Part shown: in pieces, positions 3,578-46,067 of the stretch
Layout of the letters: every line of letters starts with the position of its first letter
How positions within the stretch are numbered: the stretch's first letter is position 1
Assembly: GCA_964016885.1 (NCBI GenBank)
Contig: OZ024747.1
Coordinates: 81,158,001-81,222,000, forward strand
Direction of reading: 5' to 3'
Origin: Eledone cirrhosa
Taxonomy: Eukaryota
DNA: 64,000 bases
Made by a program: the position numbers and the translations under genes
The notes under the pieces: model-generated
Seen by the model: only the letters and a program-made list of their open reading frames with translations
What the model was told of the DNA's origin: nothing
Database searches by the model: none

Positions 3578-3606
3578 CCTATATAATAATAATAATAATA
3601 ATAATA

Positions 3607-6972: not shown

Positions 6973-7090
6973 ATAATAATAAATTTGAAGACTAAAATCC
7001 AAATCTGTTATTTTAATAAATATAAATATATATTAAAATAACAGATTAAAGTTTAAGCAAAGAATCGCTGCTTATATATATATATATATA

Positions 7091-17299: not shown

Positions 17300-19205
<1,906 letters not shown>

Positions 19206-23412: not shown

Positions 23413-26400
23413 AAATTTTGTATTTTTGTTAATCGCTTGTTAAATGCATAGACCTATCTCAATCATTACCTTCTTGCTAGCTATTTTCAAACCTTAATTC
23501 CTAACGTATTTTCAAACCCCAAAAAAAAAGCAAAATCCTTTCCTTCTTCCTTCTTCGAAGGCACGGGGCGGTCAAACGCCTAACACCCACAGCCATCATG
23601 TGGCCCCCTACCCTCGCACTCTCTCTCTCTCTCTCTCTCTCCCTATAAATATATGATAGGAATTCACTTCGCCAAATTTCATTTCTTTGCCTGCTGTCCG
23701 AACGAAAATCATGCAAACGTAAGGTACAGACTTCATCTCTCTCTCCTCTCTCTCTCTCATTTCGTATTTCAAGTCCAAATAGCCATTCTATCGCTAAAAC
23801 AAACTACATTTTCTGTTCCTATTAAGTGCTAAATACGTTTAGGTTTTTGGACGTATTTAACTGAACAAATTTTGTATTTTTGTTAATCGCTTGTTAAATG
23901 CATAGACCTATCTCAATCATTACCTTCTTGCTTAGGTTTTTGGACGTATTTAACTGAACAAATTTTGTATTTTTGTTAATCGCTTGTTAAATGCATAGAC
24001 CTATCTCAATCATTACCTTCTTGCTAGCTATTTTCAAACCTTAATTCCTAACGTATTTTCAAACCCCAAAAAAAAAGCAAAATCCTTTCCTTCTTCCTTC
24101 TTCGAAGGCACGGGGCGGTCAAACGCCTAACACCCACAGCCATCATGTGGCCCCCTACCCTCGCACTCTCTCTCTCTCTCTCTCTCTCCCTATAAATATA
24201 TGATAGGAATTCACTTCGCCAAATTTCATTTCTTTGCCTGCTGTCCGAACGAAAATCATGCAAACGTAAGGTACAGACTTCATCTCTCTCTCCTCTCTCT
24301 CTCTCATTTCGTATTTCAAGTCCAAATAGCCATTCTATCGCTAAAACAAACTACATTTTCTGTTCCTATTAAGTGCTAAATACGTTTAGGTTTTTGGACG
24401 TATTTAACTGAACAAATTTTGTATTTTTGTTAATCGCTTGTTAAATGCATAGACCTATCTCAATCATTACCTTCTTGCTAGCTATTTTCAAACCTTAATT
24501 CCTAACGTATTTTCAAACCCCAAAAAAAAAGCAAAATCCTTTCCTTCTTCCTTCTTCGAAGGCACGGGGCGGTCAAACGCCTAACACCCACAGCCATCAT
24601 GTGGCCCCCTACCCTCGCACTCTCTCTCTCTCTCTCTCTCTCCCTATAAATATATGATAGGAATTCACTTCGCCAAATTTCATTTCTTTGCCTGCTGTCC
24701 GAACGAAAATCATGCAAACGTAAGGTACAGACTTCATCTCTCTCTCCTCTCTCTCTCTCATTTCGTATTTCAAGTCCAAATAGCCATTCTATCGCTAAAA
24801 CAAACTACATTTTCTGTTCCTATTAAGTGCTAAATACGTTTAGGTTTTTGGACGTATTTAACTGAACAAATTTTGTATTTTTGTTAATCGCTTGTTAAAT
24901 GCATAGACCTATCTCAATCATTACCTTCTTGCTAGCTATTTTCAAACCTTAATTCCTAACGTATTTTCAAACCCCAAAAAAAAAGCAAAATCCTTTCCTT
25001 CTTCCTTCTTCGAAGGCACGGGGCGGTCAAACGCCTAACACCCACAGCCATCATGTGGCCCCCTACCCTCGCACTCTCTCTCTCTCTCTCTCTCTCCCTA
25101 TAAATATATGATAGGAATTCACTTCGCCAAATTTCATTTCTTTGCCTGCTGTCCGAACGAAAATCATGCAAACGTAAGGTACAGACTTCATCTCTCTCTC
25201 CTCTCTCTCTCTCATTTCGTATTTCAAGTCCAAATAGCCATTCTATCGCTAAAACAAACTACATTTTCTGTTCCTATTAAGTGCTAAATACGTTTAGGTT
25301 TTTGGACGTATTTAACTGAACAAATTTTGTATTTTTGTTAATCGCTTGTTAAATGCATAGACCTATCTCAATCATTACCTTCTTGCTAGCTATTTTCAAA
25401 CCTTAATTCCTAACGTATTTTCAAACCCCAAAAAAAAAGCAAAATCCTTTCCTTCTTCCTTCTTCGAAGGCACGGGGCGGTCAAACGCCTAACACCCACA
25501 GCCATCATGTGGCCCCCTACCCTCGCACTCTCTCTCTCTCTCTCTCTCTCCCTATAAATATATGATAGGAATTCACTTCGCCAAATTTCATTTCTTTGCC
25601 TGCTGTCCGAACGAAAATCATGCAAACGTAAGGTACAGACTTCATCTCTCTCTCCTCTCTCTCTCTCATTTCGTATTTCAAGTCCAAATAGCCATTCTAT
25701 CGCTAAAACAAACTACATTTTCTGTTCCTATTAAGTGCTAAATACGTTTAGGTTTTTGGACGTATTTAACTGAACAAATTTTGTATTTTTGTTAATCGCT
25801 TGTTAAATGCATAGACCTATCTCAATCATTACCTTCTTGCTAGCTATTTTCAAACCTTAATTCCTAACGTATTTTCAAACCCCAAAAAAAAAGCAAAATC
25901 CTTTCCTTCTTCCTTCTTCGAAGGCACGGGGCGGTCAAACGCCTAACACCCACAGCCATCATGTGGCCCCCTACCCTCGCACTCTCTCTCTCTCTCTCTC
26001 TCTCCCTATAAATATATGATAGGAATTCACTTCGCCAAATTTCATTTCTTTGCCTGCTGTCCGAACGAAAATCATGCAAACGTAAGGTACAGACTTCATC
26101 TCTCTCTCCTCTCTCTCTCTCATTTCGTATTTCAAGTCCAAATAGCCATTCTATCGCTAAAACAAACTACATTTTCTGTTCCTATTAAGTGCTAAATACG
26201 TTTAGGTTTTTGGACGTATTTAACTGAACAAATTTTGTATTTTTGTTAATCGCTTGTTAAATGCATAGACCTATCTCAATCATTACCTTCTTGCTTAGGT
26301 TTTTGGACGTATTTAACTGAACAAATTTTGTATTTTTGTTAATCGCTTGTTAAATGCATAGACCTATCTCAATCATTACCTTCTTGCTAGCTATTTTCAA

Positions 26401-29400
26401 ACCTTAATTCCTAACGTATTTTCAAACCCCAAAAAAAAAGCAAAATCCTTTCCTTCTTCCTTCTTCGAAGGCACGGGGCGGTCAAACGCCTAACACCCAC
26501 AGCCATCATGTGGCCCCCTACCCTCGCACTCTCTCTCTCTCTCTCTCTCTCCCTATAAATATATGATAGGAATTCACTTCGCCAAATTTCATTTCTTTGC
26601 CTGCTGTCCGAACGAAAATCATGCAAACGTAAGGTACAGACTTCATCTCTCTCTCCTCTCTCTCTCTCATTTCGTATTTCAAGTCCAAATAGCCATTCTA
26701 TCGCTAAAACAAACTACATTTTCTGTTCCTATTAAGTGCTAAATACGTTTAGGTTTTTGGACGTATTTAACTGAACAAATTTTGTATTTTTGTTAATCGC
26801 TTGTTAAATGCATAGACCTATCTCAATCATTACCTTCTTGCTTAGGTTTTTGGACGTATTTAACTGAACAAATTTTGTATTTTTGTTAATCGCTTGTTAA
26901 ATGCATAGACCTATCTCAATCATTACCTTCTTGCTAGCTATTTTCAAACCTTAATTCCTAACGTATTTTCAAACCCCAAAAAAAAAGCAAAATCCTTTCC
27001 TTCTTCCTTCTTCGAAGGCACGGGGCGGTCAAACGCCTAACACCCACAGCCATCATGTGGCCCCCTACCCTCGCACTCTCTCTCTCTCTCTCTCTCTCCC
27101 TATAAATATATGATAGGAATTCACTTCGCCAAATTTCATTTCTTTGCCTGCTGTCCGAACGAAAATCATGCAAACGTAAGGTACAGACTTCATCTCTCTC
27201 TCCTCTCTCTCTCTCATTTCGTATTTCAAGTCCAAATAGCCATTCTATCGCTAAAACAAACTACATTTTCTGTTCCTATTAAGTGCTAAATACGTTTAGG
27301 TTTTTGGACGTATTTAACTGAACAAATTTTGTATTTTTGTTAATCGCTTGTTAAATGCATAGACCTATCTCAATCATTACCTTCTTGCTTAGGTTTTTGG
27401 ACGTATTTAACTGAACAAATTTTGTATTTTTGTTAATCGCTTGTTAAATGCATAGACCTATCTCAATCATTACCTTCTTGCTAGCTATTTTCAAACCTTA
27501 ATTCCTAACGTATTTTCAAACCCCAAAAAAAAAGCAAAATCCTTTCCTTCTTCCTTCTTCGAAGGCACGGGGCGGTCAAACGCCTAACACCCACAGCCAT
27601 CATGTGGCCCCCTACCCTCGCACTCTCTCTCTCTCTCTCTCTCTCCCTATAAATATATGATAGGAATTCACTTCGCCAAATTTCATTTCTTTGCCTGCTG
27701 TCCGAACGAAAATCATGCAAACGTAAGGTACAGACTTCATCTCTCTCTCCTCTCTCTCTCTCATTTCGTATTTCAAGTCCAAATAGCCATTCTATCGCTA
27801 AAACAAACTACATTTTCTGTTCCTATTAAGTGCTAAATACGTTTAGGTTTTTGGACGTATTTAACTGAACAAATTTTGTATTTTTGTTAATCGCTTGTTA
27901 AATGCATAGACCTATCTCAATCATTACCTTCTTGCTTAGGTTTTTGGACGTATTTAACTGAACAAATTTTGTATTTTTGTTAATCGCTTGTTAAATGCAT
28001 AGACCTATCTCAATCATTACCTTCTTGCTAGCTATTTTCAAACCTTAATTCCTAACGTATTTTCAAACCCCAAAAAAAAAGCAAAATCCTTTCCTTCTTC
28101 CTTCTTCGAAGGCACGGGGCGGTCAAACGCCTAACACCCACAGCCATCATGTGGCCCCCTACCCTCGCACTCTCTCTCTCTCTCTCTCTCTCCCTATAAA
28201 TATATGATAGGAATTCACTTCGCCAAATTTCATTTCTTTGCCTGCTGTCCGAACGAAAATCATGCAAACGTAAGGTACAGACTTCATCTCTCTCTCCTCT
28301 CTCTCTCTCATTTCGTATTTCAAGTCCAAATAGCCATTCTATCGCTAAAACAAACTACATTTTCTGTTCCTATTAAGTGCTAAATACGTTTAGGTTTTTG
28401 GACGTATTTAACTGAACAAATTTTGTATTTTTGTTAATCGCTTGTTAAATGCATAGACCTATCTCAATCATTACCTTCTTGCTTAGGTTTTTGGACGTAT
28501 TTAACTGAACAAATTTTGTATTTTTGTTAATCGCTTGTTAAATGCATAGACCTATCTCAATCATTACCTTCTTGCTAGCTATTTTCAAACCTTAATTCCT
28601 AACGTATTTTCAAACCCCAAAAAAAAAGCAAAATCCTTTCCTTCTTCCTTCTTCGAAGGCACGGGGCGGTCAAACGCCTAACACCCACAGCCATCATGTG
28701 GCCCCCTACCCTCGCACTCTCTCTCTCTCTCTCTCTCTCCCTATAAATATATGATAGGAATTCACTTCGCCAAATTTCATTTCTTTGCCTGCTGTCCGAA
28801 CGAAAATCATGCAAACGTAAGGTACAGACTTCATCTCTCTCTCCTCTCTCTCTCTCATTTCGTATTTCAAGTCCAAATAGCCATTCTATCGCTAAAACAA
28901 ACTACATTTTCTGTTCCTATTAAGTGCTAAATACGTTTAGGTTTTTGGACGTATTTAACTGAACAAATTTTGTATTTTTGTTAATCGCTTGTTAAATGCA
29001 TAGACCTATCTCAATCATTACCTTCTTGCTTAGGTTTTTGGACGTATTTAACTGAACAAATTTTGTATTTTTGTTAATCGCTTGTTAAATGCATAGACCT
29101 ATCTCAATCATTACCTTCTTGCTAGCTATTTTCAAACCTTAATTCCTAACGTATTTTCAAACCCCAAAAAAAAAGCAAAATCCTTTCCTTCTTCCTTCTT
29201 CGAAGGCACGGGGCGGTCAAACGCCTAACACCCACAGCCATCATGTGGCCCCCTACCCTCGCACTCTCTCTCTCTCTCTCTCTCTCCCTATAAATATATG
29301 ATAGGAATTCACTTCGCCAAATTTCATTTCTTTGCCTGCTGTCCGAACGAAAATCATGCAAACGTAAGGTACAGACTTCATCTCTCTCTCCTCTCTCTCT

Positions 29401-32400
29401 CTCATTTCGTATTTCAAGTCCAAATAGCCATTCTATCGCTAAAACAAACTACATTTTCTGTTCCTATTAAGTGCTAAATACGTTTAGGTTTTTGGACGTA
29501 TTTAACTGAACAAATTTTGTATTTTTGTTAATCGCTTGTTAAATGCATAGACCTATCTCAATCATTACCTTCTTGCTAGCTATTTTCAAACCTTAATTCC
29601 TAACGTATTTTCAAACCCCAAAAAAAAAGCAAAATCCTTTCCTTCTTCCTTCTTCGAAGGCACGGGGCGGTCAAACGCCTAACACCCACAGCCATCATGT
29701 GGCCCCCTACCCTCGCACTCTCTCTCTCTCTCTCTCTCTCCCTATAAATATATGATAGGAATTCACTTCGCCAAATTTCATTTCTTTGCCTGCTGTCCGA
29801 ACGAAAATCATGCAAACGTAAGGTACAGACTTCATCTCTCTCTCCTCTCTCTCTCTCATTTCGTATTTCAAGTCCAAATAGCCATTCTATCGCTAAAACA
29901 AACTACATTTTCTGTTCCTATTAAGTGCTAAATACGTTTAGGTTTTTGGACGTATTTAACTGAACAAATTTTGTATTTTTGTTAATCGCTTGTTAAATGC
30001 ATAGACCTATCTCAATCATTACCTTCTTGCTAGCTATTTTCAAACCTTAATTCCTAACGTATTTTCAAACCCCAAAAAAAAAGCAAAATCCTTTCCTTCT
30101 TCCTTCTTCGAAGGCACGGGGCGGTCAAACGCCTAACACCCACAGCCATCATGTGGCCCCCTACCCTCGCACTCTCTCTCTCTCTCTCTCTCTCCCTATA
30201 AATATATGATAGGAATTCACTTCGCCAAATTTCATTTCTTTGCCTGCTGTCCGAACGAAAATCATGCAAACGTAAGGTACAGACTTCATCTCTCTCTCCT
30301 CTCTCTCTCTCATTTCGTATTTCAAGTCCAAATAGCCATTCTATCGCTAAAACAAACTACATTTTCTGTTCCTATTAAGTGCTAAATACGTTTAGGTTTT
30401 TGGACGTATTTAACTGAACAAATTTTGTATTTTTGTTAATCGCTTGTTAAATGCATAGACCTATCTCAATCATTACCTTCTTGCTTAGGTTTTTGGACGT
30501 ATTTAACTGAACAAATTTTGTATTTTTGTTAATCGCTTGTTAAATGCATAGACCTATCTCAATCATTACCTTCTTGCTAGCTATTTTCAAACCTTAATTC
30601 CTAACGTATTTTCAAACCCCAAAAAAAAAGCAAAATCCTTTCCTTCTTCCTTCTTCGAAGGCACGGGGCGGTCAAACGCCTAACACCCACAGCCATCATG
30701 TGGCCCCCTACCCTCGCACTCTCTCTCTCTCTCTCTCTCTCCCTATAAATATATGATAGGAATTCACTTCGCCAAATTTCATTTCTTTGCCTGCTGTCCG
30801 AACGAAAATCATGCAAACGTAAGGTACAGACTTCATCTCTCTCTCCTCTCTCTCTCTCATTTCGTATTTCAAGTCCAAATAGCCATTCTATCGCTAAAAC
30901 AAACTACATTTTCTGTTCCTATTAAGTGCTAAATACGTTTAGGTTTTTGGACGTATTTAACTGAACAAATTTTGTATTTTTGTTAATCGCTTGTTAAATG
31001 CATAGACCTATCTCAATCATTACCTTCTTGCTTAGGTTTTTGGACGTATTTAACTGAACAAATTTTGTATTTTTGTTAATCGCTTGTTAAATGCATAGAC
31101 CTATCTCAATCATTACCTTCTTGCTAGCTATTTTCAAACCTTAATTCCTAACGTATTTTCAAACCCCAAAAAAAAAGCAAAATCCTTTCCTTCTTCCTTC
31201 TTCGAAGGCACGGGGCGGTCAAACGCCTAACACCCACAGCCATCATGTGGCCCCCTACCCTCGCACTCTCTCTCTCTCTCTCTCTCTCCCTATAAATATA
31301 TGATAGGAATTCACTTCGCCAAATTTCATTTCTTTGCCTGCTGTCCGAACGAAAATCATGCAAACGTAAGGTACAGACTTCATCTCTCTCTCCTCTCTCT
31401 CTCTCATTTCGTATTTCAAGTCCAAATAGCCATTCTATCGCTAAAACAAACTACATTTTCTGTTCCTATTAAGTGCTAAATACGTTTAGGTTTTTGGACG
31501 TATTTAACTGAACAAATTTTGTATTTTTGTTAATCGCTTGTTAAATGCATAGACCTATCTCAATCATTACCTTCTTGCTTAGGTTTTTGGACGTATTTAA
31601 CTGAACAAATTTTGTATTTTTGTTAATCGCTTGTTAAATGCATAGACCTATCTCAATCATTACCTTCTTGCTAGCTATTTTCAAACCTTAATTCCTAACG
31701 TATTTTCAAACCCCAAAAAAAAAGCAAAATCCTTTCCTTCTTCCTTCTTCGAAGGCACGGGGCGGTCAAACGCCTAACACCCACAGCCATCATGTGGCCC
31801 CCTACCCTCGCACTCTCTCTCTCTCTCTCTCTCTCCCTATAAATATATGATAGGAATTCACTTCGCCAAATTTCATTTCTTTGCCTGCTGTCCGAACGAA
31901 AATCATGCAAACGTAAGGTACAGACTTCATCTCTCTCTCCTCTCTCTCTCTCATTTCGTATTTCAAGTCCAAATAGCCATTCTATCGCTAAAACAAACTA
32001 CATTTTCTGTTCCTATTAAGTGCTAAATACGTTTAGGTTTTTGGACGTATTTAACTGAACAAATTTTGTATTTTTGTTAATCGCTTGTTAAATGCATAGA
32101 CCTATCTCAATCATTACCTTCTTGCTTAGGTTTTTGGACGTATTTAACTGAACAAATTTTGTATTTTTGTTAATCGCTTGTTAAATGCATAGACCTATCT
32201 CAATCATTACCTTCTTGCTAGCTATTTTCAAACCTTAATTCCTAACGTATTTTCAAACCCCAAAAAAAAAGCAAAATCCTTTCCTTCTTCCTTCTTCGAA
32301 GGCACGGGGCGGTCAAACGCCTAACACCCACAGCCATCATGTGGCCCCCTACCCTCGCACTCTCTCTCTCTCTCTCTCTCTCCCTATAAATATATGATAG

Positions 32401-35400
32401 GAATTCACTTCGCCAAATTTCATTTCTTTGCCTGCTGTCCGAACGAAAATCATGCAAACGTAAGGTACAGACTTCATCTCTCTCTCCTCTCTCTCTCTCA
32501 TTTCGTATTTCAAGTCCAAATAGCCATTCTATCGCTAAAACAAACTACATTTTCTGTTCCTATTAAGTGCTAAATACGTTTAGGTTTTTGGACGTATTTA
32601 ACTGAACAAATTTTGTATTTTTGTTAATCGCTTGTTAAATGCATAGACCTATCTCAATCATTACCTTCTTGCTTAGGTTTTTGGACGTATTTAACTGAAC
32701 AAATTTTGTATTTTTGTTAATCGCTTGTTAAATGCATAGACCTATCTCAATCATTACCTTCTTGCTAGCTATTTTCAAACCTTAATTCCTAACGTATTTT
32801 CAAACCCCAAAAAAAAAGCAAAATCCTTTCCTTCTTCCTTCTTCGAAGGCACGGGGCGGTCAAACGCCTAACACCCACAGCCATCATGTGGCCCCCTACC
32901 CTCGCACTCTCTCTCTCTCTCTCTCTCTCCCTATAAATATATGATAGGAATTCACTTCGCCAAATTTCATTTCTTTGCCTGCTGTCCGAACGAAAATCAT
33001 GCAAACGTAAGGTACAGACTTCATCTCTCTCTCCTCTCTCTCTCTCATTTCGTATTTCAAGTCCAAATAGCCATTCTATCGCTAAAACAAACTACATTTT
33101 CTGTTCCTATTAAGTGCTAAATACGTTTAGGTTTTTGGACGTATTTAACTGAACAAATTTTGTATTTTTGTTAATCGCTTGTTAAATGCATAGACCTATC
33201 TCAATCATTACCTTCTTGCTTAGGTTTTTGGACGTATTTAACTGAACAAATTTTGTATTTTTGTTAATCGCTTGTTAAATGCATAGACCTATCTCAATCA
33301 TTACCTTCTTGCTAGCTATTTTCAAACCTTAATTCCTAACGTATTTTCAAACCCCAAAAAAAAAGCAAAATCCTTTCCTTCTTCCTTCTTCGAAGGCACG
33401 GGGCGGTCAAACGCCTAACACCCACAGCCATCATGTGGCCCCCTACCCTCGCACTCTCTCTCTCTCTCTCTCTCTCCCTATAAATATATGATAGGAATTC
33501 ACTTCGCCAAATTTCATTTCTTTGCCTGCTGTCCGAACGAAAATCATGCAAACGTAAGGTACAGACTTCATCTCTCTCTCCTCTCTCTCTCTCATTTCGT
33601 ATTTCAAGTCCAAATAGCCATTCTATCGCTAAAACAAACTACATTTTCTGTTCCTATTAAGTGCTAAATACGTTTAGGTTTTTGGACGTATTTAACTGAA
33701 CAAATTTTGTATTTTTGTTAATCGCTTGTTAAATGCATAGACCTATCTCAATCATTACCTTCTTGCTTAGGTTTTTGGACGTATTTAACTGAACAAATTT
33801 TGTATTTTTGTTAATCGCTTGTTAAATGCATAGACCTATCTCAATCATTACCTTCTTGCTAGCTATTTTCAAACCTTAATTCCTAACGTATTTTCAAACC
33901 CCAAAAAAAAAGCAAAATCCTTTCCTTCTTCCTTCTTCGAAGGCACGGGGCGGTCAAACGCCTAACACCCACAGCCATCATGTGGCCCCCTACCCTCGCA
34001 CTCTCTCTCTCTCTCTCTCTCTCCCTATAAATATATGATAGGAATTCACTTCGCCAAATTTCATTTCTTTGCCTGCTGTCCGAACGAAAATCATGCAAAC
34101 GTAAGGTACAGACTTCATCTCTCTCTCCTCTCTCTCTCTCATTTCGTATTTCAAGTCCAAATAGCCATTCTATCGCTAAAACAAACTACATTTTCTGTTC
34201 CTATTAAGTGCTAAATACGTTTAGGTTTTTGGACGTATTTAACTGAACAAATTTTGTATTTTTGTTAATCGCTTGTTAAATGCATAGACCTATCTCAATC
34301 ATTACCTTCTTGCTTAGGTTTTTGGACGTATTTAACTGAACAAATTTTGTATTTTTGTTAATCGCTTGTTAAATGCATAGACCTATCTCAATCATTACCT
34401 TCTTGCTAGCTATTTTCAAACCTTAATTCCTAACGTATTTTCAAACCCCAAAAAAAAAGCAAAATCCTTTCCTTCTTCCTTCTTCGAAGGCACGGGGCGG
34501 TCAAACGCCTAACACCCACAGCCATCATGTGGCCCCCTACCCTCGCACTCTCTCTCTCTCTCTCTCTCTCCCTATAAATATATGATAGGAATTCACTTCG
34601 CCAAATTTCATTTCTTTGCCTGCTGTCCGAACGAAAATCATGCAAACGTAAGGTACAGACTTCATCTCTCTCTCCTCTCTCTCTCTCATTTCGTATTTCA
34701 AGTCCAAATAGCCATTCTATCGCTAAAACAAACTACATTTTCTGTTCCTATTAAGTGCTAAATACGTTTAGGTTTTTGGACGTATTTAACTGAACAAATT
34801 TTGTATTTTTGTTAATCGCTTGTTAAATGCATAGACCTATCTCAATCATTACCTTCTTGCTTAGGTTTTTGGACGTATTTAACTGAACAAATTTTGTATT
34901 TTTGTTAATCGCTTGTTAAATGCATAGACCTATCTCAATCATTACCTTCTTGCTAGCTATTTTCAAACCTTAATTCCTAACGTATTTTCAAACCCCAAAA
35001 AAAAAGCAAAATCCTTTCCTTCTTCCTTCTTCGAAGGCACGGGGCGGTCAAACGCCTAACACCCACAGCCATCATGTGGCCCCCTACCCTCGCACTCTCT
35101 CTCTCTCTCTCTCTCTCCCTATAAATATATGATAGGAATTCACTTCGCCAAATTTCATTTCTTTGCCTGCTGTCCGAACGAAAATCATGCAAACGTAAGG
35201 TACAGACTTCATCTCTCTCTCCTCTCTCTCTCTCATTTCGTATTTCAAGTCCAAATAGCCATTCTATCGCTAAAACAAACTACATTTTCTGTTCCTATTA
35301 AGTGCTAAATACGTTTAGGTTTTTGGACGTATTTAACTGAACAAATTTTGTATTTTTGTTAATCGCTTGTTAAATGCATAGACCTATCTCAATCATTACC

Positions 35401-38400
35401 TTCTTGCTTAGGTTTTTGGACGTATTTAACTGAACAAATTTTGTATTTTTGTTAATCGCTTGTTAAATGCATAGACCTATCTCAATCATTACCTTCTTGC
35501 TAGCTATTTTCAAACCTTAATTCCTAACGTATTTTCAAACCCCAAAAAAAAAGCAAAATCCTTTCCTTCTTCCTTCTTCGAAGGCACGGGGCGGTCAAAC
35601 GCCTAACACCCACAGCCATCATGTGGCCCCCTACCCTCGCACTCTCTCTCTCTCTCTCTCTCTCCCTATAAATATATGATAGGAATTCACTTCGCCAAAT
35701 TTCATTTCTTTGCCTGCTGTCCGAACGAAAATCATGCAAACGTAAGGTACAGACTTCATCTCTCTCTCCTCTCTCTCTCTCATTTCGTATTTCAAGTCCA
35801 AATAGCCATTCTATCGCTAAAACAAACTACATTTTCTGTTCCTATTAAGTGCTAAATACGTTTAGGTTTTTGGACGTATTTAACTGAACAAATTTTGTAT
35901 TTTTGTTAATCGCTTGTTAAATGCATAGACCTATCTCAATCATTACCTTCTTGCTTAGGTTTTTGGACGTATTTAACTGAACAAATTTTGTATTTTTGTT
36001 AATCGCTTGTTAAATGCATAGACCTATCTCAATCATTACCTTCTTGCTAGCTATTTTCAAACCTTAATTCCTAACGTATTTTCAAACCCCAAAAAAAAAG
36101 CAAAATCCTTTCCTTCTTCCTTCTTCGAAGGCACGGGGCGGTCAAACGCCTAACACCCACAGCCATCATGTGGCCCCCTACCCTCGCACTCTCTCTCTCT
36201 CTCTCTCTCTCCCTATAAATATATGATAGGAATTCACTTCGCCAAATTTCATTTCTTTGCCTGCTGTCCGAACGAAAATCATGCAAACGTAAGGTACAGA
36301 CTTCATCTCTCTCTCCTCTCTCTCTCTCATTTCGTATTTCAAGTCCAAATAGCCATTCTATCGCTAAAACAAACTACATTTTCTGTTCCTATTAAGTGCT
36401 AAATACGTTTAGGTTTTTGGACGTATTTAACTGAACAAATTTTGTATTTTTGTTAATCGCTTGTTAAATGCATAGACCTATCTCAATCATTACCTTCTTG
36501 CTTAGGTTTTTGGACGTATTTAACTGAACAAATTTTGTATTTTTGTTAATCGCTTGTTAAATGCATAGACCTATCTCAATCATTACCTTCTTGCTAGCTA
36601 TTTTCAAACCTTAATTCCTAACGTATTTTCAAACCCCAAAAAAAAAGCAAAATCCTTTCCTTCTTCCTTCTTCGAAGGCACGGGGCGGTCAAACGCCTAA
36701 CACCCACAGCCATCATGTGGCCCCCTACCCTCGCACTCTCTCTCTCTCTCTCTCTCTCCCTATAAATATATGATAGGAATTCACTTCGCCAAATTTCATT
36801 TCTTTGCCTGCTGTCCGAACGAAAATCATGCAAACGTAAGGTACAGACTTCATCTCTCTCTCCTCTCTCTCTCTCATTTCGTATTTCAAGTCCAAATAGC
36901 CATTCTATCGCTAAAACAAACTACATTTTCTGTTCCTATTAAGTGCTAAATACGTTTAGGTTTTTGGACGTATTTAACTGAACAAATTTTGTATTTTTGT
37001 TAATCGCTTGTTAAATGCATAGACCTATCTCAATCATTACCTTCTTGCTTAGGTTTTTGGACGTATTTAACTGAACAAATTTTGTATTTTTGTTAATCGC
37101 TTGTTAAATGCATAGACCTATCTCAATCATTACCTTCTTGCTAGCTATTTTCAAACCTTAATTCCTAACGTATTTTCAAACCCCAAAAAAAAAGCAAAAT
37201 CCTTTCCTTCTTCCTTCTTCGAAGGCACGGGGCGGTCAAACGCCTAACACCCACAGCCATCATGTGGCCCCCTACCCTCGCACTCTCTCTCTCTCTCTCT
37301 CTCTCTCCCTATAAATATATGATAGGAATTCACTTCGCCAAATTTCATTTCTTTGCCTGCTGTCCGAACGAAAATCATGCAAACGTAAGGTACAGACTTC
37401 ATCTCTCTCTCCTCTCTCTCTCTCATTTCGTATTTCAAGTCCAAATAGCCATTCTATCGCTAAAACAAACTACATTTTCTGTTCCTATTAAGTGCTAAAT
37501 ACGTTTAGGTTTTTGGACGTATTTAACTGAACAAATTTTGTATTTTTGTTAATCGCTTGTTAAATGCATAGACCTATCTCAATCATTACCTTCTTGCTTA
37601 GGTTTTTGGACGTATTTAACTGAACAAATTTTGTATTTTTGTTAATCGCTTGTTAAATGCATAGACCTATCTCAATCATTACCTTCTTGCTAGCTATTTT
37701 CAAACCTTAATTCCTAACGTATTTTCAAACCCCCAAAAAAAAGCAAAATCCTTTCCTTCTTCCTTCTTCGAAGGCACGGGGCGGTCAAACGCCTAACACC
37801 CACAGCCATCATGTGGCCCCCTACCCTCGCACTCTCTCTCTCTCTCTCTCTCTCCCTATAAATATATGATAGGAATTCACTTCGCCAAATTTCATTTCTT
37901 TGCCTGCTGTCCGAACGAAAATCATGCAAACGTAAGGTACAGACTTCATCTCTCTCTCCTCTCTCTCTCTCATTTCGTATTTCAAGTCCAAATAGCCATT
38001 CTATCGCTAAAACAAACTACATTTTCTGTTCCTATTAAGTGCTAAATACGTTTAGGTTTTTGGACGTATTTAACTGAACAAATTTTGTATTTTTGTTAAT
38101 CGCTTGTTAAATGCATAGACCTATCTCAATCATTACCTTCTTGCTAGCTATTTTCAAACCTTAATTCCTAACGTATTTTCAAACCCCAAAAAAAAAGCAA
38201 AATCCTTTCCTTCTTCCTTCTTCGAAGGCACGGGGCGGTCAAACGCCTAACACCCACAGCCATCATGTGGCCCCCTACCCTCGCACTCTCTCTCTCTCTC
38301 TCTCTCTCCCTATAAATATATGATAGGAATTCACTTCGCCAAATTTCATTTCTTTGCCTGCTGTCCGAACGAAAATCATGCAAACGTAAGGTACAGACTT

Positions 38401-39791
38401 CATCTCTCTCTCCTCTCTCTCTCTCATTTCGTATTTCAAGTCCAAATAGCCATTCTATCGCTAAAACAAACTACATTTTCTGTTCCTATTAAGTGCTAAA
38501 TACGTTTAGGTTTTTGGACGTATTTAACTGAACAAATTTTGTATTTTTGTTAATCGCTTGTTAAATGCATAGACCTATCTCAATCATTACCTTCTTGCTT
38601 AGGTTTTTGGACGTATTTAACTGAACAAATTTTGTATTTTTGTTAATCGCTTGTTAAATGCATAGACCTATCTCAATCATTACCTTCTTGCTAGCTATTT
38701 TCAAACCTTAATTCCTAACGTATTTTCAAACCCCAAAAAAAAAGCAAAATCCTTTCCTTCTTCCTTCTTCGAAGGCACGGGGCGGTCAAACGCCTAACAC
38801 CCACAGCCATCATGTGGCCCCCTACCCTCGCACTCTCTCTCTCTCTCTCTCTCTCCCTATAAATATATGATAGGAATTCACTTCGCCAAATTTCATTTCT
38901 TTGCCTGCTGTCCGAACGAAAATCATGCAAACGTAAGGTACAGACTTCATCTCTCTCTCCTCTCTCTCTCTCATTTCGTATTTCAAGTCCAAATAGCCAT
39001 TCTATCGCTAAAACAAACTACATTTTCTGTTCCTATTAAGTGCTAAATACGTTTAGGTTTTTGGACGTATTTAACTGAACAAATTTTGTATTTTTGTTAA
39101 TCGCTTGTTAAATGCATAGACCTATCTCAATCATTACCTTCTTGCTTAGGTTTTTGGACGTATTTAACTGAACAAATTTTGTATTTTTGTTAATCGCTTG
39201 TTAAATGCATAGACCTATCTCAATCATTACCTTCTTGCTAGCTATTTTCAAACCTTAATTCCTAACGTATTTTCAAACCCCCAAAAAAAAGCAAAATCCT
39301 TTCCTTCTTCCTTCTTCGAAGGCACGGGGCGGTCAAACGCCTAACACCCACAGCCATCATGTGGCCCCCTACCCTCGCACTCTCTCTCTCTCTCTCTCTC
39401 TCCCTATAAATATATGATAGGAATTCACTTCGCCAAATTTCATTTCTTTGCCTGCTGTCCGAACGAAAATCATGCAAACGTAAGGTACAGACTTCATCTC
39501 TCTCTCCTCTCTCTCTCTCATTTCGTATTTCAAGTCCAAATAGCCATTCTATCGCTAAAACAAACTACATTTTCTGTTCCTATTAAGTGCTAAATACGTT
39601 TAGGTTTTTGGACGTATTTAACTGAACAAATTTTGTATTTTTGTTAATCGCTTGTTAAATGCATAGACCTATCTCAATCATTACCTTCTTGCTTAGGTTT
39701 TTGGACGTATTTAACTGAACAAATTTTGTATTTTTGTTAATCGCTTGTTAAATGCATAGACCTATCTCAATCATTACCTTCTTGCTAGCTA
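23413..39791 (+). repeat. 16.4-kb tandem array of 31 near-identical units (24 long of 547 bp, 7 short of 454 bp; long units carry two copies of a 93-bp module)
   Basis: The 71-aa marker ORF recurs at spacings of 547 or 454 bp. Order: L,S4,L6,S2,L13,L(+2 bp),S,L,L,L(truncated). The module is TTAGGTTTTTGGACG...ACCTTCTTGC. Confidence 0.98.
39405..39411 (+). promoter_or_regulatory. TATA box-like motif (TATAAAT) in every array unit; last copy shown
   Basis: (CT)n-CCCTATAAATA is followed by initiator-like TCACTT/TCATTT, AAAATCATG and AAC|GTAAG. Function is inferred only. Confidence 0.35.
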
Positions 39792-39827
39792 CCCAACATC
39801 CCTCCCTCCCACCCCCACACACCACCA

Positions 39828-40514
39828 TTGCTATTACGTGGACCAATCATAAAACAGCCCCCACGTATCACCAGTATTATTACGCGGACCAATCAGAAAC
39901 CAGAGGCCTATACTATCGCTTGCCTGGTTGCCTTTCGATATACGATATATGATGGATGGATGGACTGCGGAATCCTGGAGAGTGGAGGTGAGAGAGAAAA
40001 ATCTGGACGCTCAGCGACAATGCCAAAGATAAAGACAAATTCACCCCTTGGACGAGAATGCGAGCACTCCTCATTGTTTCGACCGCGGACGGCTAACATA
40101 ACACCATCGCCCCCCGCCCCTCACCGCCCCCAACCCCCAAACGCAATCCAAAACTTCAGAGTTGGTACCATAAATGTAGGCACCCTAAAGGGTCGCGCTA
40201 ACGAGGTTGTAGAAATGCTTGAACGTAAGGAGGTCGATGTTTGTTGTATTCAAGAGACCAGGTGGAGGGGTGGGTCTGCTAGGTTCATTGAGGGTAAAAA
40301 ACGTTGTTATAAGCTTTTCTGGGTGGGAAACGACGATGGGCTGGGTGGAGTAGGAATCATGGTAGCAGAAAAGTGGGCAGATAAGATAATAGACGTAAAT
40401 AGAGTGAACGACAGAATAATTAAAATACGACTTGTCCTCAATAGAACTACGAGTAATATCTGCGTACGCACCCCAATCCGGACTGCCCGGCACTATAAAA
40501 GACAGATTCTATGA
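39828..40514 (+). CDS. RTE ORF, N-terminal part (AP endonuclease N-half); continues via a frameshift near 40441
   Basis: RVGTINVGTLKGR, DVCCIQETRW, GVGI and RVNDRII are APE motifs. The frame is open from 39789, and the true start is uncertain (ATG at 40020 is a candidate). Confidence 0.85.
   Translation: MLLRGPIIKQPPRITSIITRTNQKPEAYTIACLVAFRYTIYDGWMDCGILESGGEREKSGRSATMPKIKTNSPLGRECEHSSLFRPRTANITPSPPAPHRPQPPNAIQNFRVGTINVGTLKGRANEVVEMLERKEVDVCCIQETRWRGGSARFIEGKKRCYKLFWVGNDDGLGGVGIMVAEKWADKIIDVNRVNDRIIKIRLVLNRTTSNICVRTPIRTARHYKRQIL
39832..39895 (+). promoter_or_regulatory. Duplicated 18-bp motif with CCAAT box in the RTE leader
   Basis: TATTACGTGGACCAATCA and TATTACGCGGACCAATCA lie 46 bp apart. 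Confidence 0.4.
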
Positions 40515-43185
40515 GACACTGATGCTAACTACCTCCCAAATATCCGACAGTGACTATATAATTATCGCAGGCGACCTAAATGGTCACGTTGGACAACATT
40601 GTGACGGCTACGACGAAATCCATGGAGGCTATGGGTTTGGTACTAGAAATGAGGAAGGCTCCAGAATCCTGGAATTCTGTGATGCAAATAACCTAACTAT
40701 CTGTAACACTAACTTCAAAAAACGTGACAATCACCTGATCACCTATAGATCCGGGGAACACACAAGCCAGGTAGATTATATCCTTACCAGAAGACGTGAC
40801 AGAGTGTCTGTTGTTAACACTAAATCCCTCCCCCATGAAGAATGCACCTCCCAACATAGACTGATAATTAGCGACCTCATAGTCAGGACGAGACGTACTC
40901 GACAACAGAAGAGGACTATCCTCAGGAGGAAAATATGGAAGTTAAAGGACCCCACAGCCAGGAATAAATTTCAAAGCATATTACTTGATGCTTTCGACAG
41001 TAAGGAAGAACATTTAGAGTCGGACAATATAGAGGGAGAGTGGGAATTTCTGAAAGCAAACCTGCTGTTGGCGACAGACGAGGTCTGTGGCTGGAGCAGG
41101 CCTGTAGGCAGGAGGAGAGTAACATGGTGGTGGAACAGTAAGGTGGAGGGGTCAATTAAGGCCAAAAAGCAGGCTTGGAAAGTATGGCGGGATGGGGGAA
41201 GTAGAGAGGACTATCAAGTGGCCAGGAGGGAAGCTAGGAGACAAGTGTACTTAGCAAGAAGGGAAGCTGAGGAAAGAAAGTTCAAGCATGTTCTACAACG
41301 CGATGACCAAAAACGTGAGGTGTTCAGGATTGCTAGGCAATGCGTCAAGGAAAACCGTGATATTGTCGGGGAGAAGTGTGTACTAAACGACGATGGCACA
41401 CTTGCCATCACCGACGCTGATAAGAAGGTAGCTTGGAAGTGTCACTATGAAAGGCTTCTAAATGAGGAGAATAATTGGGAGAAAGGCAGTCTCCCCCATA
41501 TCGACCCAATAGAGGGACCAGCAGTGTTAGTCGAGGGGAGTATAATAAGTAAGGCAATCAAGGATATGAAGACTGGTAAGGCGGCTGGGCCTTCGGAAAT
41601 AGTTGCTGAGATGCTGAAGGCATCTGGCACGGTGGGACACACCATGGTCACCCGCATAGTTAACCAAGTCGTACAAAACGGGGTTGTTCCGAAGGACTGG
41701 CATAGCAGCATCATCGTTAACTGTTATAAGGGTAAAGGAGACGCCCTAGATAGGAGTAACTATAGAGGCATTAAATTAATCGACCAGGTCATGAAGGTCA
41801 CGGAAAGAGTAATAGCGCAGCTAATCAGAGAGAGAATTGACCTAGATGAAATGCAGTTCGGGTTTGTGTCAGGCAAAAGTACCACAGACGCTCTTTTCAT
41901 AGTACGACAACTACAAGAGAAGTACCTAGCTAAAGGTAAACCCCTCTACTTAGCTTTTGTCGACTTGGAGAAAGCCTTCGACAGAGTCCCCCGCTCCATT
42001 ATCTGGTGGGCTCTTAGAAAACTAGGCGTTGACGAATGGCTTGTGAGGGCTATACAAGCCATGTATAAAGAAACAGTCAGCAAGGTTAGAATTAACAACG
42101 AATATAGTGAAGAGTTTAGCGTAAAAGTCGGCGTCCATCAGGGCTCTGTTCTCAGTCCACTACTATTTATTATTGCCCTTCAGGCCATAACAGAGGAGTT
42201 CAAGACAGGCTGCCCATGGGAACTCCTATACGCAGACGACCTGACACTCATAGCGGAATCAATGGCCGAGCTAGAGAAGAAATTCCAAACATGGAAGCAC
42301 GGCCTAGAGTCAAAAGGACTTAAAATTAACCTGGCTAAGACCAAAGTACTAGTTTGTAGGAAAGAAAACAAGGCGGCGGTCCCTTCTGGGAAATGGTCGT
42401 GCTCGGTGTGTAGGAAAGGCGTAGGTAGAAACTCCATTTTATGTCCTAAATGCAAAGTATGGGTGCATAAAAGATGTAGTGGGATCACAGGTAGGCTAAC
42501 TAAGAACATAGATTTTACATGTGGCCGGTGCTCTGGTGCAATAAGTAGCAGCAAGTGCCCACAAACTACTAGCTCTTTCAATTGCGCAGAGGGTTCTATA
42601 GAAATAGTGGACAGCTTCCGTTACCTGGGCGATAAAATCAGCAGTGGGGGAGGGTGCTCTGAAAGTACTGTAGCTAGAGTCAGAACTGGTTGGAAAAAGT
42701 TCAGAGAGCTTATACCACTATTAGCTGCTAAAGGGTTCTCACTAAAAATGAAAGGCAGGTTGTACGATGCCTGCATACGAACAGCAATGCTGCATGGCAG
42801 TGAGACCTGGGCATTGTGTGCAGAGGATATACGCAGACTAGAGAGGAACGAAGCTTGCATGCTCCGCTGGATGTGTAACAGTAATATACGTGAACGGCAA
42901 AGCATAAACGAACTAAGGAATAAATTAGAGATAAGAGGGATCAGATGTTGTTTACTCGAGAGAAGGCTACGTTGGTATGGACACGTGATGCGCATGAAAG
43001 TCGATAGCTGTATAACAAAGTGCAGGGCAATAAAGATAGACGGTAGTCACGGAATAGGCAGACCTAGAAAAACCTGGGACGAGCTGATAAACTCCGACAT
43101 CACACACTTACACCTCTCCAAGACAATGTCACTGGACCGAGACCTTTGGCGGTACTCAGTAACAGAGAAGACCCGCCTTACCTAA
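40432..43185 (+). CDS. RTE ORF, main part: APE C-half, reverse transcriptase, PHD finger, C-terminal domain
   Basis: SAYAPQ, GDLNGH, QVDYIL, SQHRL, NYRGIKL, QFGF, FVDLEKAFDRV, GVHQGSVLSPLLF, YADD (42229-42240), C4HC3 finger, FRYLG and RLRWYGHV. There are 917 codons without a stop. Confidence 0.95.
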   Translation: MSSIELRVISAYAPQSGLPGTIKDRFYETLMLTTSQISDSDYIIIAGDLNGHVGQHCDGYDEIHGGYGFGTRNEEGSRILEFCDANNLTICNTNFKKRDNHLITYRSGEHTSQVDYILTRRRDRVSVVNTKSLPHEECTSQHRLIISDLIVRTRRTRQQKRTILRRKIWKLKDPTARNKFQSILLDAFDSKEEHLESDNIEGEWEFLKANLLLATDEVCGWSRPVGRRRVTWWWNSKVEGSIKAKKQAWKVWRDGGSREDYQVARREARRQVYLARREAEERKFKHVLQRDDQKREVFRIARQCVKENRDIVGEKCVLNDDGTLAITDADKKVAWKCHYERLLNEENNWEKGSLPHIDPIEGPAVLVEGSIISKAIKDMKTGKAAGPSEIVAEMLKASGTVGHTMVTRIVNQVVQNGVVPKDWHSSIIVNCYKGKGDALDRSNYRGIKLIDQVMKVTERVIAQLIRERIDLDEMQFGFVSGKSTTDALFIVRQLQEKYLAKGKPLYLAFVDLEKAFDRVPRSIIWWALRKLGVDEWLVRAIQAMYKETVSKVRINNEYSEEFSVKVGVHQGSVLSPLLFIIALQAITEEFKTGCPWELLYADDLTLIAESMAELEKKFQTWKHGLESKGLKINLAKTKVLVCRKENKAAVPSGKWSCSVCRKGVGRNSILCPKCKVWVHKRCSGITGRLTKNIDFTCGRCSGAISSSKCPQTTSSFNCAEGSIEIVDSFRYLGDKISSGGGCSESTVARVRTGWKKFRELIPLLAAKGFSLKMKGRLYDACIRTAMLHGSETWALCAEDIRRLERNEACMLRWMCNSNIRERQSINELRNKLEIRGIRCCLLERRLRWYGHVMRMKVDSCITKCRAIKIDGSHGIGRPRKTWDELINSDITHLHLSKTMSLDRDLWRYSVTEKTRLT

Positions 43186-43589
43186 ATATATAGTAAAACC
43201 TACTCCAGCCAGTAGGCATCTCTAACAAATACACCCCGTCCCACCACCCCCACCCGATCCACACCACCCCGTTCTATGTAAAGTTATGTTGGTGCCGCGC
43301 CATCGAGGCCGAAACAAATGAGATCGTGTAGGTGTCACGACAAAAAAACACACAGTCCACGCTGTAATGTGGCCGTGTAGGCAACACGGTAAAAACCTCC
43401 CAGACCCACACTGTAAATGTGGTTGGTGTTAGGAAGGGCATCCAACTGTAGAAAACCTGCCAGACAGTCCTATGCGAGCAAGACAATCACTCTTGCCTCA
43501 AGTGGGACTACCCCCGTCCAAACCCATGCAAGCGTGGAACACGGACGTTAAACGCTGATGATGATGATGATGATGATGATATATATATG

Positions 43590-43943
43590 TATCAACATAT
43601 GTTAACCTTGGTCTTCCTCTTCTAGTGTGTCCATGTAGGGGCTCCCAAAGGAGCACTGAGTGCAATGTCAACTCTGGATGTTGGTGAGCATGTCCAGCCA
43701 ACCTCAGTCTCCTCTGTGTCACTTTTGAGCTGACTTTTGGGATGCTCCCATACAGCTCTGAGTTTTTCATCCTCAGTGTATACTGATTAATGTTCAGAGC
43801 CATCCTCAGCATTCTCGTGTAGCACCCATCCACCATCTGGTCTGTTGGAGATGCAGGATATGGCAGCGATAATGAGGGACAGAGACCGCTGGAGAGAACT
43901 CGTCCATGGATCTCGGGAATTTTACCCGCCTTAGATAGATAGA
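43590..43943. mobile_element. RTE/RTEX-like LINE fragment with 5' inversion
   Basis: About 43590-43855 encodes DGCYTRMLR...RGRPRLTYVD on the minus strand. 43860-43943 encodes [18 protein letters not shown] plus a (TAGA)n tail on the plus strand. Confidence 0.85.
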
Positions 43944-44323: not shown

Positions 44324-46067
44324 GAGAGAATTGACCTAGATGAAATGCAGTTCGGGTTTGTGTCAGGCAAAAGTACCACAGACCCTCTTTTCTTTGTACG
44401 ACAACTACAGGAGAAGTACCTAGCGAAAGGTAAACCCCCTACTTAGCTTTTGTCGACTTGGAGAAAGCCTTCGACAGAGTCCCCCGCTCCATTATCTGGT
44501 GGGCTCTTAGAAAACTAGGTGTTGACGAATGGCTTGTGAGAGCTATACAAGCCATGTATAAAGAAACAGTCAGCAAGGTTAGAATTAACAACGAATATAG
44601 TGAAGAGTTTAGCGTAAAAGTTGGCGTCCATCAGGGCTCTGTTCTCAGCCCCCTACTATTTATTATTGCCTTTCAGGCTATAACAGAGGAGTTCAAGACC
44701 GGCTGCCTATACGCAGACGACCTGACACTCATAGCGGAATCAATGGCCGAGCTAGAGAAGAAATTCCAAACATGGAAGCACGGCCTAGAATCAAAAGGAC
44801 TTAAAATTAACCTGGCTAAGACTAAAGTTCTAGTTTGTAGGAAAGAAAATAAGGCGGCGGTCCCTTCTGGGAAATGGTCGTGCTCGGGGTGTAGGAAAGG
44901 CGTAGGTAGAAACTCCATTTTATGTCCTAAATGCAAAGTATGGGTGCATAAAAGATGTAGTGGGATCACAGGTAAGCTAACTAAGAACATAGATTTTACA
45001 TGTGGCCGGTGCTCTGGTGCAATAAGTAGCAGCAAGTGCCCACAAAATACTAGCTCTTTCAATTGAGCAGAGGGTTCTATAGAAATAGTGGACAGTTTCC
45101 GTTACCTGCGTGATAAAATCAGCAGTGGGGGAGGGTGCTCTGAAAGTACAGTAGCTAGAGTCAGAACTGGTTGGAAAAAGTTCAGAGAGCTTATACCACT
45201 ATTAGCTGCTAAAGGGTTCTCCCTAAAAATGAAAGGCAGGTTGTACGATGCCTGCATACGAACAGCAATGTTGCATGGCAGTGAGACCTGGGCATTGTGT
45301 GCAGAGGATATACGCAGACTAGAGAGGAACGAAGCTTGCATGCTCCGCTGGATGTGTAACAGTAATATACGTGAACGGCAAAGCATAAACGAACTAAGGA
45401 AAAAATTAGAGATAAGAGGGATCAGATGTTGTTTACTCGAGAGAAGGCTACGTTGGTATGGACACGTGATGCGCATGAAAGTCGATAGCTGTATAACAAA
45501 GTGCAGGGCAATAAAGATAGACGGTAGCCACGGAATAGGCAGACCTAGAAAAACCTGGGACGAGCTGATAAACTCCGACCTCACACACTTACACCTCTCC
45601 AAGACAATGTCACTGGACCGAGATCTTTGGCGGTACTCAGTAACAGAGAAGACCCGCCTTACCTAAATACATAGTAAAACCTACTACAGCCAGTAGGCAT
45701 CTCTAAAAAAATACCCCCCCCCCCGTCCCACCACCACCACCACCACCCCATCCACACCACCCCGTTCTATGTAAAGTTATGTTGGTGCCACACCATCCAG
45801 GCCGAAACAAATGAGATCGTGTAGGTGTCACGACAAAAAAACACACAGTCCACGCTGTAATGTGGCCGTGTAGGCAACACGGTAAAAACTTCCCAGACCC
45901 ACACTGTAAATGTGGTTGGTGTTAGGAAGGGCATCCAACTGTAGAAAACCTGCCAGACAGTCCTATGCGAGCAAGACAATCACTCTTGCCTCAAGTGGGA
46001 CTACACCCGTCCAAACCCATGCAAGCGTGGAACATGGACGTTAAACGTTGATGATGATGATGATGAT
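44324..46067 (+). mobile_element. 5'-truncated young copy of the PHD-RTE
   Basis: Very similar to 41830-43580. It has a frameshift near 44440, a 12-bp deletion before LYADD, a stop at 45064 and a (GAT)n tail. Confidence 0.97.

Follow-up and report, generated by a model that had tools for sequence, protein, structure and literature searches.

Introduction

The 5' ends of mouse and rat LINE-1 elements (L1Md A, Tf and Gf) consist of tandem monomers that vary in number and are connected to the ORF by a short tether. The A-module of the Dictyostelium element TRE5-A is also repeated in tandem, and non-LTR retrozymes occur as tandem monomers, each a few hundred bases long, that are homogeneous within a locus. 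Mouse L1 monomers turn over quickly relative to the ORF and carry a YY1-like motif (PMC6454616, PMC5381506). How are such monomers regenerated? The process has been called unclear, and second-strand expansion and unequal crossing-over have been proposed (PMC6454616). The 200-bp A-module, which lies at the 5' side of this non-LTR element, has promoter activity (PMC3159450), and short tandem arrays within Lathyrus sativus retrotransposons sometimes expand into long satellites (PMC7004042). RTE-clade LINEs, including Bov-B and RTE-2_OV of Octopus vulgaris, encode an APE endonuclease and a reverse transcriptase in a single long ORF, carry a microsatellite 3' tail and use TA-containing targets (PMC13295347, PMC9115989). 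The literature searched by title and abstract opening contained no account of an RTE-like LINE with 5' monomer arrays, and the word 'tandem' is absent from the main text of the RTE-2_OV paper. Here, we analyse such an array in a 64-kb window, the whole stretch of Eledone cirrhosa DNA under study, and its relatives across the genome.

Results

The window array spans positions 23413-39791 of the forward strand, on which all features below lie unless stated otherwise, and abuts the 5' end of an element. It begins with a 5'-truncated distal partial monomer (23413-23477; unit positions 390-454, 65 nt) and continues with 31 full 5' monomers (23478-39785; 24 long and 7 short, counted from the assembly). 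The long units measure 547 bp, one of them 549 bp, and the short 454-bp units occur in runs of 4, 2 and 1. A 93-bp tandem duplication, carried by the 24 long units, is private to this locus, with 24 of its 24 occurrences lying in the window; at 39600-39785, its junction lies at 39686-39697 and its right breakpoint is the monomer/leader boundary. Apart from this duplication, the units differ only at one CT repeat and one homopolymer-edge base. The boundary itself is TAGCTA (39786-39791), the opening 6 nt of the next unit and the endpoint of the backward-jump junctions described below, and the leader follows with a spacer of 0 nt. The initial annotation had recognized near-identical units that end mid-unit and pass directly into the leader, and this description holds for the 31 full units plus TAGCTA. 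Its observation of an abrupt left edge inside the 93-bp module is equally accurate: non-repetitive flank switches sharply to the partial at unit position 390. The unit has no other match within the window, and this is, as had been noted, the only copy there that keeps its 5' end, all others (7090-7889, 44324-46067, 48955-51439 and short 3' ends) lacking it. No TSD was found at the window copy. The distal partial covers 8 array-wide private sites, of which 7 are present and 1 is absent, a mostly uninformative test. With 31 monomers, the window array is the longest seen, and it is no one-off, as other loci carry arrays too.

The element body starts with the leader and the N-terminal half of an APE endonuclease (39789-40514) in a stop-free frame that begins at the boundary, with the earliest in-frame ATGs at 39960 and 40020. 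The remaining ORF, in a shifted frame (40420-43185), encodes the C-terminal half of the endonuclease, the reverse transcriptase and a PHD finger. It is followed by a 3' UTR (43186-43555) with a third C-tract near 43234, a (TGA)n tail (43556-43580) and a short TA tract. The element had been called near-intact: a 5-nt deletion near 40451 splits the ORF within the endonuclease domain. This deletion is private to the window, being missing from the other 100 copies and 11 aligned related loci. A stop-free frame of at least 1050 codons is found in 70 of 101 copies, the window copy being frameshifted. The single long ORF matches the Pfam families Exo_endo_phos and RVT_1, with the endonuclease preceding the reverse transcriptase, and a Pfam scan of the two window ORF pieces returned no RNase H family. 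There is no separate ORF1, the frame opening right at the boundary. RTE-clade LINEs are not known to have a separate ORF1 or RNase H. The (TGA)n tail recurs in other copies as a microsatellite 3' tail rather than poly(A). No named RTE reference occurs among the 120 listed relatives, and the PDB hits are L1, R2 and group II proteins; we therefore term the family RTE-like. Identity with RTE-2_OV was rejected, given that three of its primers show 6-7 mismatches and the 3' end also differs.

Is the array a part of the element or a neighbouring satellite? The window array is almost certainly the element's own 5' end, composed of monomers that belong to a young family of RTE-like LINEs. The initial annotation had raised this reading and named a count of same-base junctions beforehand as its test. 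Among the 30 loci that match the leader best (window included), 29 have the monomer end at the identical base and none has a spliced leader, and 172 exact monomer-element junctions exist genome-wide, next to 798 monomer-monomer junctions and 961 monomer ends in total (a pattern count that includes canonical junctions). At least 3 kb of body continues past 99 of 100 fetched junctions. Divergence of monomer and body is correlated (Mantel r 0.80, reached by 0 of 999 permutations), and the monomer, 450-560 bp long in family copies, is approximately 7-8 times more variable than the body. Monomers and body are inserted jointly, mostly into (TA)n tracts, and are randomly truncated at the 5' end, with truncation points scattered over the unit. 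TSD-like repeats, the signature expected of TPRT insertion, flank monomers plus body at 12 of 76 loci, where 20 shuffles gave 0-6; microsatellite targets blur this comparison.

An independent satellite, a Helitron-like repeat beside the LINE or an assembly artefact would accommodate the near-perfect homogeneity, the CTAG at the unit end and a copy number that rests on the assembly. These readings are largely refuted and retain scarcely any probability, as every array tested ends in the element: it follows all 10 of the arrays first suspected to be orphans and all 4 of the end-motif sites, which argues against independent satellite DNA. Moreover, many loci carry arrays with variant patterns of their own, and short-read contigs span the junction, one of them from a different organism and study; of the four runs that supplied contigs, two may belong to the assembly's own study and do not count as independent. 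The proposal that the element targets a satellite is unsupported because its targets are (TA)n tracts. In Helitrons, a subterminal hairpin precedes the 3' CTAG. A Helitron tandem array was rejected, with no stable hairpin before CTAG on either strand (z 0.7-1.3); nor was a hairpin found at the monomer/leader boundary.

The arrays likely grow in place, as argued by homogeneity within loci, differences between loci and block doublings, and this growth is likely anchored at the monomer/leader boundary. In arrays of at least three units, single-unit substitutions amount to 0.21/kb versus 0.83/kb private substitutions in their bodies, and 13 array-shared private changes were found in 24 loci. Block patterns have periods of 3, 4 and 8 units, and local multiplication, including that of such blocks, is established. 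Arrays of 10-22 monomers are carried by 10 of 100 loci, against a geometric expectation of 0.36 for at least 10. A few monomers, defects included, do come from the source copy: a 166-bp deleted monomer is common to at least six loci, and L077 and L118 have a common first-versus-later monomer pattern. These inherited defects would suit the transcription of a whole 16-20-kb array from a long-array source copy and its intact reverse transcription. Such wholesale copying is nevertheless very improbable, since the variants in long arrays are locus-private and the diagnostic SNP of the window recurs at a single other locus, where there are two monomers and no 93-bp duplication.

At the rare microhomology junctions, the sequence runs up to the boundary and then returns to a point further upstream, which may even lie in the flanking DNA. 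Of 18 rearrangement junctions, selected manually among 32 noisy rows, approximately 7 stop at -4 to +6 nt of the monomer 3' end (binomial for the excess, about 1e-7), and 5 of these 7 abut the leader. At L162, which lies at C1:142.90 Mb, approximately 800 nt of flank and 1.5 monomers are triplicated up to the boundary, although the continuity of the flank has no confirmation from the 3' side. At L198, located at C22:0.90 Mb, approximately 1.8 kb of TA target and a 92-nt partial monomer are triplicated, likewise as far as the boundary, as read from the order of landmarks, global TA-spacer identities being uninformative.

Could unequal crossing-over or slippage, acting once two monomers exist, account for growth of the same element with the boundary irrelevant? 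Unequal crossing-over was already proposed for long mouse arrays (PMC6454616), and a period-8 block at L122, like period-4 blocks, is not boundary-anchored. The distribution of monomer number falls steeply from 58 loci with one to 29 with two and then decays slowly. Unequal exchange alone leaves unexplained the clustering of junctions at the monomer end and the triplication at L198, where only the partial monomer and flank were available. Long arrays also sit on copies without private body substitutions (window, L134 and L147), and older copies do not have longer arrays (rho -0.19, p 0.054). We thus regard exchange as the sole route as unlikely.

Arrays could alternatively be built at insertion if reverse transcriptase jumped repeatedly onto a linear or circular RNA whose 3' end coincides with that of the monomer, for example a cleavage product or an intron after its excision, in a manner resembling retrozymes or R2 template jumping. 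The monomer end resembles a 3' splice site, a donor-like motif is present in 65 of 74 loci and the new unit of L107 starts at that motif. The distal partial of L107 begins inside this new unit, which simple slip-back there would not give. Two solo monomer fragments shorter than a unit (L196 and L197) stop at the boundary and have no leader, and homogeneous arrays occur on the youngest copies. However, the stops spread over -4 to +6 rather than a single site, the block doublings with common mutations imply several rounds at the DNA level, and an exact-pattern search of the genome found the L162 junction at L162 only, leaving its flank triplication without a source copy among the matches. There are no spliced leaders among 30 loci, and an Rfam search of 38600-40300 for known ribozyme and ncRNA families gave 0 matches at E up to 5, so that a retrozyme with a known self-cleaving ribozyme was rejected. 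Template jumping is accordingly still less probable than exchange alone. The same search and unremarkable folding of the monomer RNA (z -1.27) gave no support to the suggested ncRNA array.

Immediately past the boundary, where growth in place would be anchored, lies a C-tract that forms a G-quadruplex (G4) motif on the reverse strand (39792-39816; G runs with 1-nt loops), a candidate stall site. GGGA/GGGT-type G4s on the G-rich strand inhibit replicative polymerases (PMC12038398). Because the motif begins exactly at the monomer/leader boundary, we prefer stalling followed by slipping back. The tract is also a deletion hotspot in other copies: among the 27 indel junctions in the body that measure 8 nt or more, 10 fall within it. 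G4 state is, on the other hand, unlinked to array length, as exchange without any role of the G4 would predict: at least seven monomers are found at 13 of 94 strict-G4 versus 5 of 29 other loci, or at 15 of 108 versus 3 of 15 under a loose definition. Two end-anchored junctions (L097 and L161) join distal monomers away from the G4, which counts against it as the trigger, and across 109 bodies no large backward jump was seen at either of the two other body G4 motifs. The G4 as trigger of array growth is therefore a tentative proposal, with a chance slightly short of even.

Each monomer is likely a promoter, judging from conserved motifs. The candidate core of the proximal monomer (39326-39412), which recurs in every unit, comprises a GC box (39326-39332; conserved in 72 of 74 loci), GCCATCAT (39353-39360; 74 of 74), which we take to be YY1-like, (CT)n (39380-39401; 74 of 74) and TATAAATA (39405-39412; 57 of 74); the motif names are presumptive. 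The 5' ends of copies are spread across the unit without clear phasing on a start site, and 5 of 80 lie at unit positions 195-203, 28-36 nt past the TATA (p ~0.02, post hoc).

Discussion

Overall, the lengthening of 5' monomer arrays in place by stalling at the G4 and slipping back is the best explanation and, in our judgement, moderately probable. Plus-strand DNA synthesis would stall at the G4 motif just past the last monomer. The nascent strand, halted at the boundary, would re-anneal one period or more upstream and thereby add monomers, or would re-anneal at a microhomology and create a new unit; the slip may then recur in a ratchet-like manner. Ordinary unequal exchange probably contributes as well. 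The monomer period itself may be such a duplication, retained because it would restore a promoter of the TATA type, which would be missing from the transcript.

A bolder and more doubtful reading, although a possible one, is that the LINE has a built-in promoter-regeneration device, in which a G4 behind the promoter causes stalling and upstream DNA is re-copied. If so, a single monomer could suffice for a new insertion to regain a promoter array as long as 16 kb, and the device could invent new monomer units and amplify kilobases of host flank; it would explain in concrete terms how the promoter monomers of LINEs originate and are renewed. In-place growth would more generally help to explain how jumping genes regain a putative promoter lost on moving. 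With at least 172 copies, very young and mostly intact, the family supplies monomer variants that are private to single loci; together with the rare 'mistake' junctions, which point to a fixed breakpoint and a direction, these variants make the competing models testable from sequence.

How does the family compare with known systems? Its coding organization, 3' tail and targets are those of RTE-clade LINEs, and a PHD finger follows the reverse transcriptase, unlike in Bov-B or the RTE-2_OV entry. Its 5' end works like that of rodent L1 monomer elements, of which it is not a member, as its body is not of the L1 clade: it has a single APE-RT-PHD ORF, a (TGA)n tail and TA targets, whereas L1 has ORF1, ORF2 and poly(A). 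An L1-style monomer architecture is thus shown in a different LINE type. In contrast to mouse L1 monomers, those described here are 450-560 bp long and AT-rich and carry a TATA box. More than 10 monomers occur at 9 of 100 loci versus 1% in mouse (maximum 50, not homogeneous). Unlike in rodent L1, the 5' ends show no clear phasing and boundary-anchored duplications capture flank. Retrozymes differ in that no ribozyme was found here and the array is joined to an autonomous ORF. TRE5-A belongs to another clade and targets tRNA genes, and we know of no multi-kb arrays of its A-module. The Lathyrus sativus arrays derive from LTR elements and are pericentromeric, whereas the arrays described here stay at the 5' boundary of dispersed LINEs, outlining how multi-kb satellites can come from the 5' ends of LINEs; host DNA beside insertions is also amplified locally.

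The tandem unit as the 5′ end of an RTE-like element

The array in the window begins at 23413 with a 65-nt partial unit and continues through 31 full units, 24 long (547 bp, one 549 bp) and seven of 454 bp, up to TAGCTA (39786-39791), directly after which the element leader starts at 39792. The fusion of a 31-unit array to an RTE leader, as described in the initial annotation, was thus re-found in each of these parts. The long form carries a tandem duplication of 93 bp at the 3′ end of the unit. The element had also been called near-intact; its body encodes an APE endonuclease, RT and PHD finger (Pfam scan) and closes with (TGA)n, and its ORF is split near 40451 by a 5-nt deletion absent from the other 100 copies. 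This is the sole window copy with a 5′ end, as previously noted. The other, 5′-truncated members of this LINE family at 7090-7889 (-), 44324-46067 (+), 48955-51439 (+), 164-219 and 19083-19138 show 89-96% identity and represent insertions of several ages within one window.

The proposal that the unit is the element's own 5′ monomer is borne out across the 3.0-Gb, (TA)n-rich genome. The monomer ends at the identical base in 29 of the 30 best leader-matching loci (window included; drawn from 40 scored out of 2128 candidates). An exact-pattern search found 172 monomer-element and 798 monomer-monomer junctions genome-wide, and reversed control patterns for both types gave 0 matches. Among the first 100 of the 172 junction loci (contigs C1-C4), 99 run on for 3 kb or more of the element body, with 97.6-99.9% identity in the 98 that have one long alignment; a frame of at least 1050 codons is retained in 70/101 copies. 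Arrays lacking the element were looked for, and all 10 suspected orphan arrays ended in it, as did 4/4 further end-motif sites. Monomer and body distances are correlated (r 0.80, 57 loci; 0/999 permutations as high), the monomer being ~8 times as divergent as the body. Short-read contigs bridge the junction in sequencing run X4 and in run X6, the latter from a different organism and study. The monomer array is real and a feature of the whole family, and it is virtually certain that the unit is the 5′ end of the element, attached in copies family-wide. Relatives of the element protein are widespread (55-66% identity over the RT region), with named matches in Hydractinia and Mercenaria.

Array sizes and growth

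The number of full monomers per locus (n=100) is 0 in 43, 1 in 29, 2 in 5, 3-8 in 13 and 10-22 in 10, and the window's 31 units form the largest array found. Loci with at least 10 monomers number 10, versus 0.36 expected under a geometric model. Every long array has a private unit variant: the 93-bp duplication occurs 24 times in the genome search, always inside the window, and a diagnostic SNP marks the window's 31 units as well as two others, both from a single related locus without that duplication. In 24 arrays of at least three units, single-unit substitutions number 12 in 57,893 bp (0.21/kb), compared with 0.83/kb private changes in the bodies of those arrays and with 1.57/kb in the monomers of loci that have one or two units; array-wide shared private changes number 13. 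Variant patterns of period 3, 4 and 8 indicate block duplication. Array length does not increase with age (rho -0.19, p 0.054). Some of the monomer structure is passed on through RNA, a monomer with a 166-bp deletion being common to at least six loci.

A fixed breakpoint at the monomer end

The most informative part of the analysis is the boundary-anchored, flank-capturing duplications. A k-mer catalogue of rearrangement junctions over 126 loci gave 32 rows and, after hand curation, ~18 events; rows that arose from 30-nt repeats within the monomer, from microsatellites or from subfamily inserts were removed, and shared events were merged. Seven of the ~18 junctions (the window's duplication, L074, L097, L107, L144, L161 and L162) end at -4 to +6 nt from the monomer end and then resume at an earlier position (binomial 8e-8 for all seven and 2e-5 for the five leader-abutting ones, on hand-curated events). 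L162 holds three copies of a block that joins ~800 nt of flanking, non-element DNA to 1.5 monomers, and a genome search for the flank junction finds only this locus. At L198, which was found by targeted search after the catalogue and lies outside the binomial statistic, a stretch comprising ~1.8 kb of TA target and a partial monomer of 92 nt occurs three times, ending at the boundary, with landmarks in the same order across the target copies. The new unit occurs in at least three copies at 4/6 leader-adjacent cases, L198 included, and two solo monomer fragments likewise end at -1. Because flank is captured, these duplications point to a DNA-level event in cis.

At one solo fragment ending at the boundary (L196 / L200, G000:C2:145137600-145137830), the adjoining local sequence forms a short duplication and an inverted repeat; the fragment looks like a templated repair insertion. 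At L197 / L201 (G000:C3:210209400-210210600 (-)), the monomer end is followed by ~800 nt of TA tract and an element 3′ part that begins exactly at the third C-tract; an N gap adjoins.

The boundary coincides exactly with the onset of a C-tract whose minus strand reads as a G-quadruplex (G4) motif with 1-nt loops, and 10/27 indel junctions of at least 8 nt sit in this tract (109 bodies). Polymerases are described as inhibited at such motifs when the template is the G-rich strand (PMC12038398). The plus strand would stall at the boundary G4, leaving a nascent end at +6 or less that could re-anneal upstream via homology or microhomology; once a repeat exists, the same re-annealing would recur. 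The predicted G4 is our preferred candidate for the trigger of backward duplication. Against it, two end-anchored junctions are located away from the G4, the distal partial of L107 starts inside its new unit, and the L122 block is not anchored at the boundary. G4 state showed no link with long arrays under two definitions (13/94 vs 5/29; 15/108 vs 3/15), and no large backward jumps were found at the two other G4 motifs in 109 bodies. No hairpin or known RNA at the boundary accounts for the site in folding and Rfam checks.

Insertion sites and 5′ ends

Dinucleotide tracts adjoin 62/76 of the 5′ flanks and 65/76 of the 3′ flanks. TSD-like repeats enclose monomers and body in 12/76 loci versus 0-6 in 20 shuffles, a signal blurred by microsatellite targets; the 76 exclude 10 arrays that were open, 11 loci whose boundaries were unreliable and four in which no tail was found. 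No TSD was found at the window copy. The 5′ ends of copies are scattered over the whole unit. L051 and L053 (C1:7.43 and 9.35 Mb) share as target the same short tandem repeat, not pure TA, with a 17-nt duplication at L053. Immediately behind the window element's (TGA)n tail lies a fragment from the 3′ end of another LINE-like element (43590-43930 (-)); a (TATATG)n tract and a further copy come next, as nested insertions in one TA target. L162 holds two palindromic high-copy MITE-like repeats within TA tracts (1775-2016, with 2361 candidates genome-wide, and 9715-9960).

Candidate promoter motifs in the monomer

Promoter-like motifs are conserved across 74 loci: GC box in 72/74, GCCATCAT in 74/74, (CT)n-TATA in 74/74 and TATAAATA in 57/74. 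CpG o/e is 1.04 in the monomer versus 0.36 in the remaining window, although young age raises it too (0.69 in the body). Only 5/80 5′ ends lie 28-36 nt beyond the TATA. Judged by its motifs and by analogy, the monomer is probably a promoter. Donor-like (39476-39485) and acceptor-like (39777-39788) splice motifs occur in each monomer; no spliced genomic copies were found among 30 leader loci.

Other features of the window

A GTG-rich 30-bp minisatellite (10623-11564) has ~31 copies with periods of 54/60/78 bp and is open in more than one reading frame. Broken RT-like frames at 56419-57621 (+), presumably Penelope-like, include a first frame with a weak RVT_1 match. Frames with CxxC motifs lie at 3468-4368 (+) and 63324-63914 (+), which we take to resemble the C-terminus of an R2/R4-type element and the N-terminus of a Helitron; a Pfam scan of the 3907-4365 and 63324-63911 frames gave no match.

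Comparison with known systems

Identity with RTE-2_OV was ruled out, as three of its primers (PMC9115989) have 6-7 mismatches. The available portion of the O. vulgaris repeat annotation (PMC13282606) makes no mention of such a 5′ monomer structure, and no report of a 5′ monomer array in an RTE-like LINE was found in the titles and abstract openings that the literature search covered. Of the known systems, the monomer promoters of mouse L1 come closest; for these, PMC6454616 gives at most 10 monomers in 99% and one case with 50, and states that the duplication mechanism is unclear. Tandem 5′ motifs are known from several mammalian L1s (PMC5381506).
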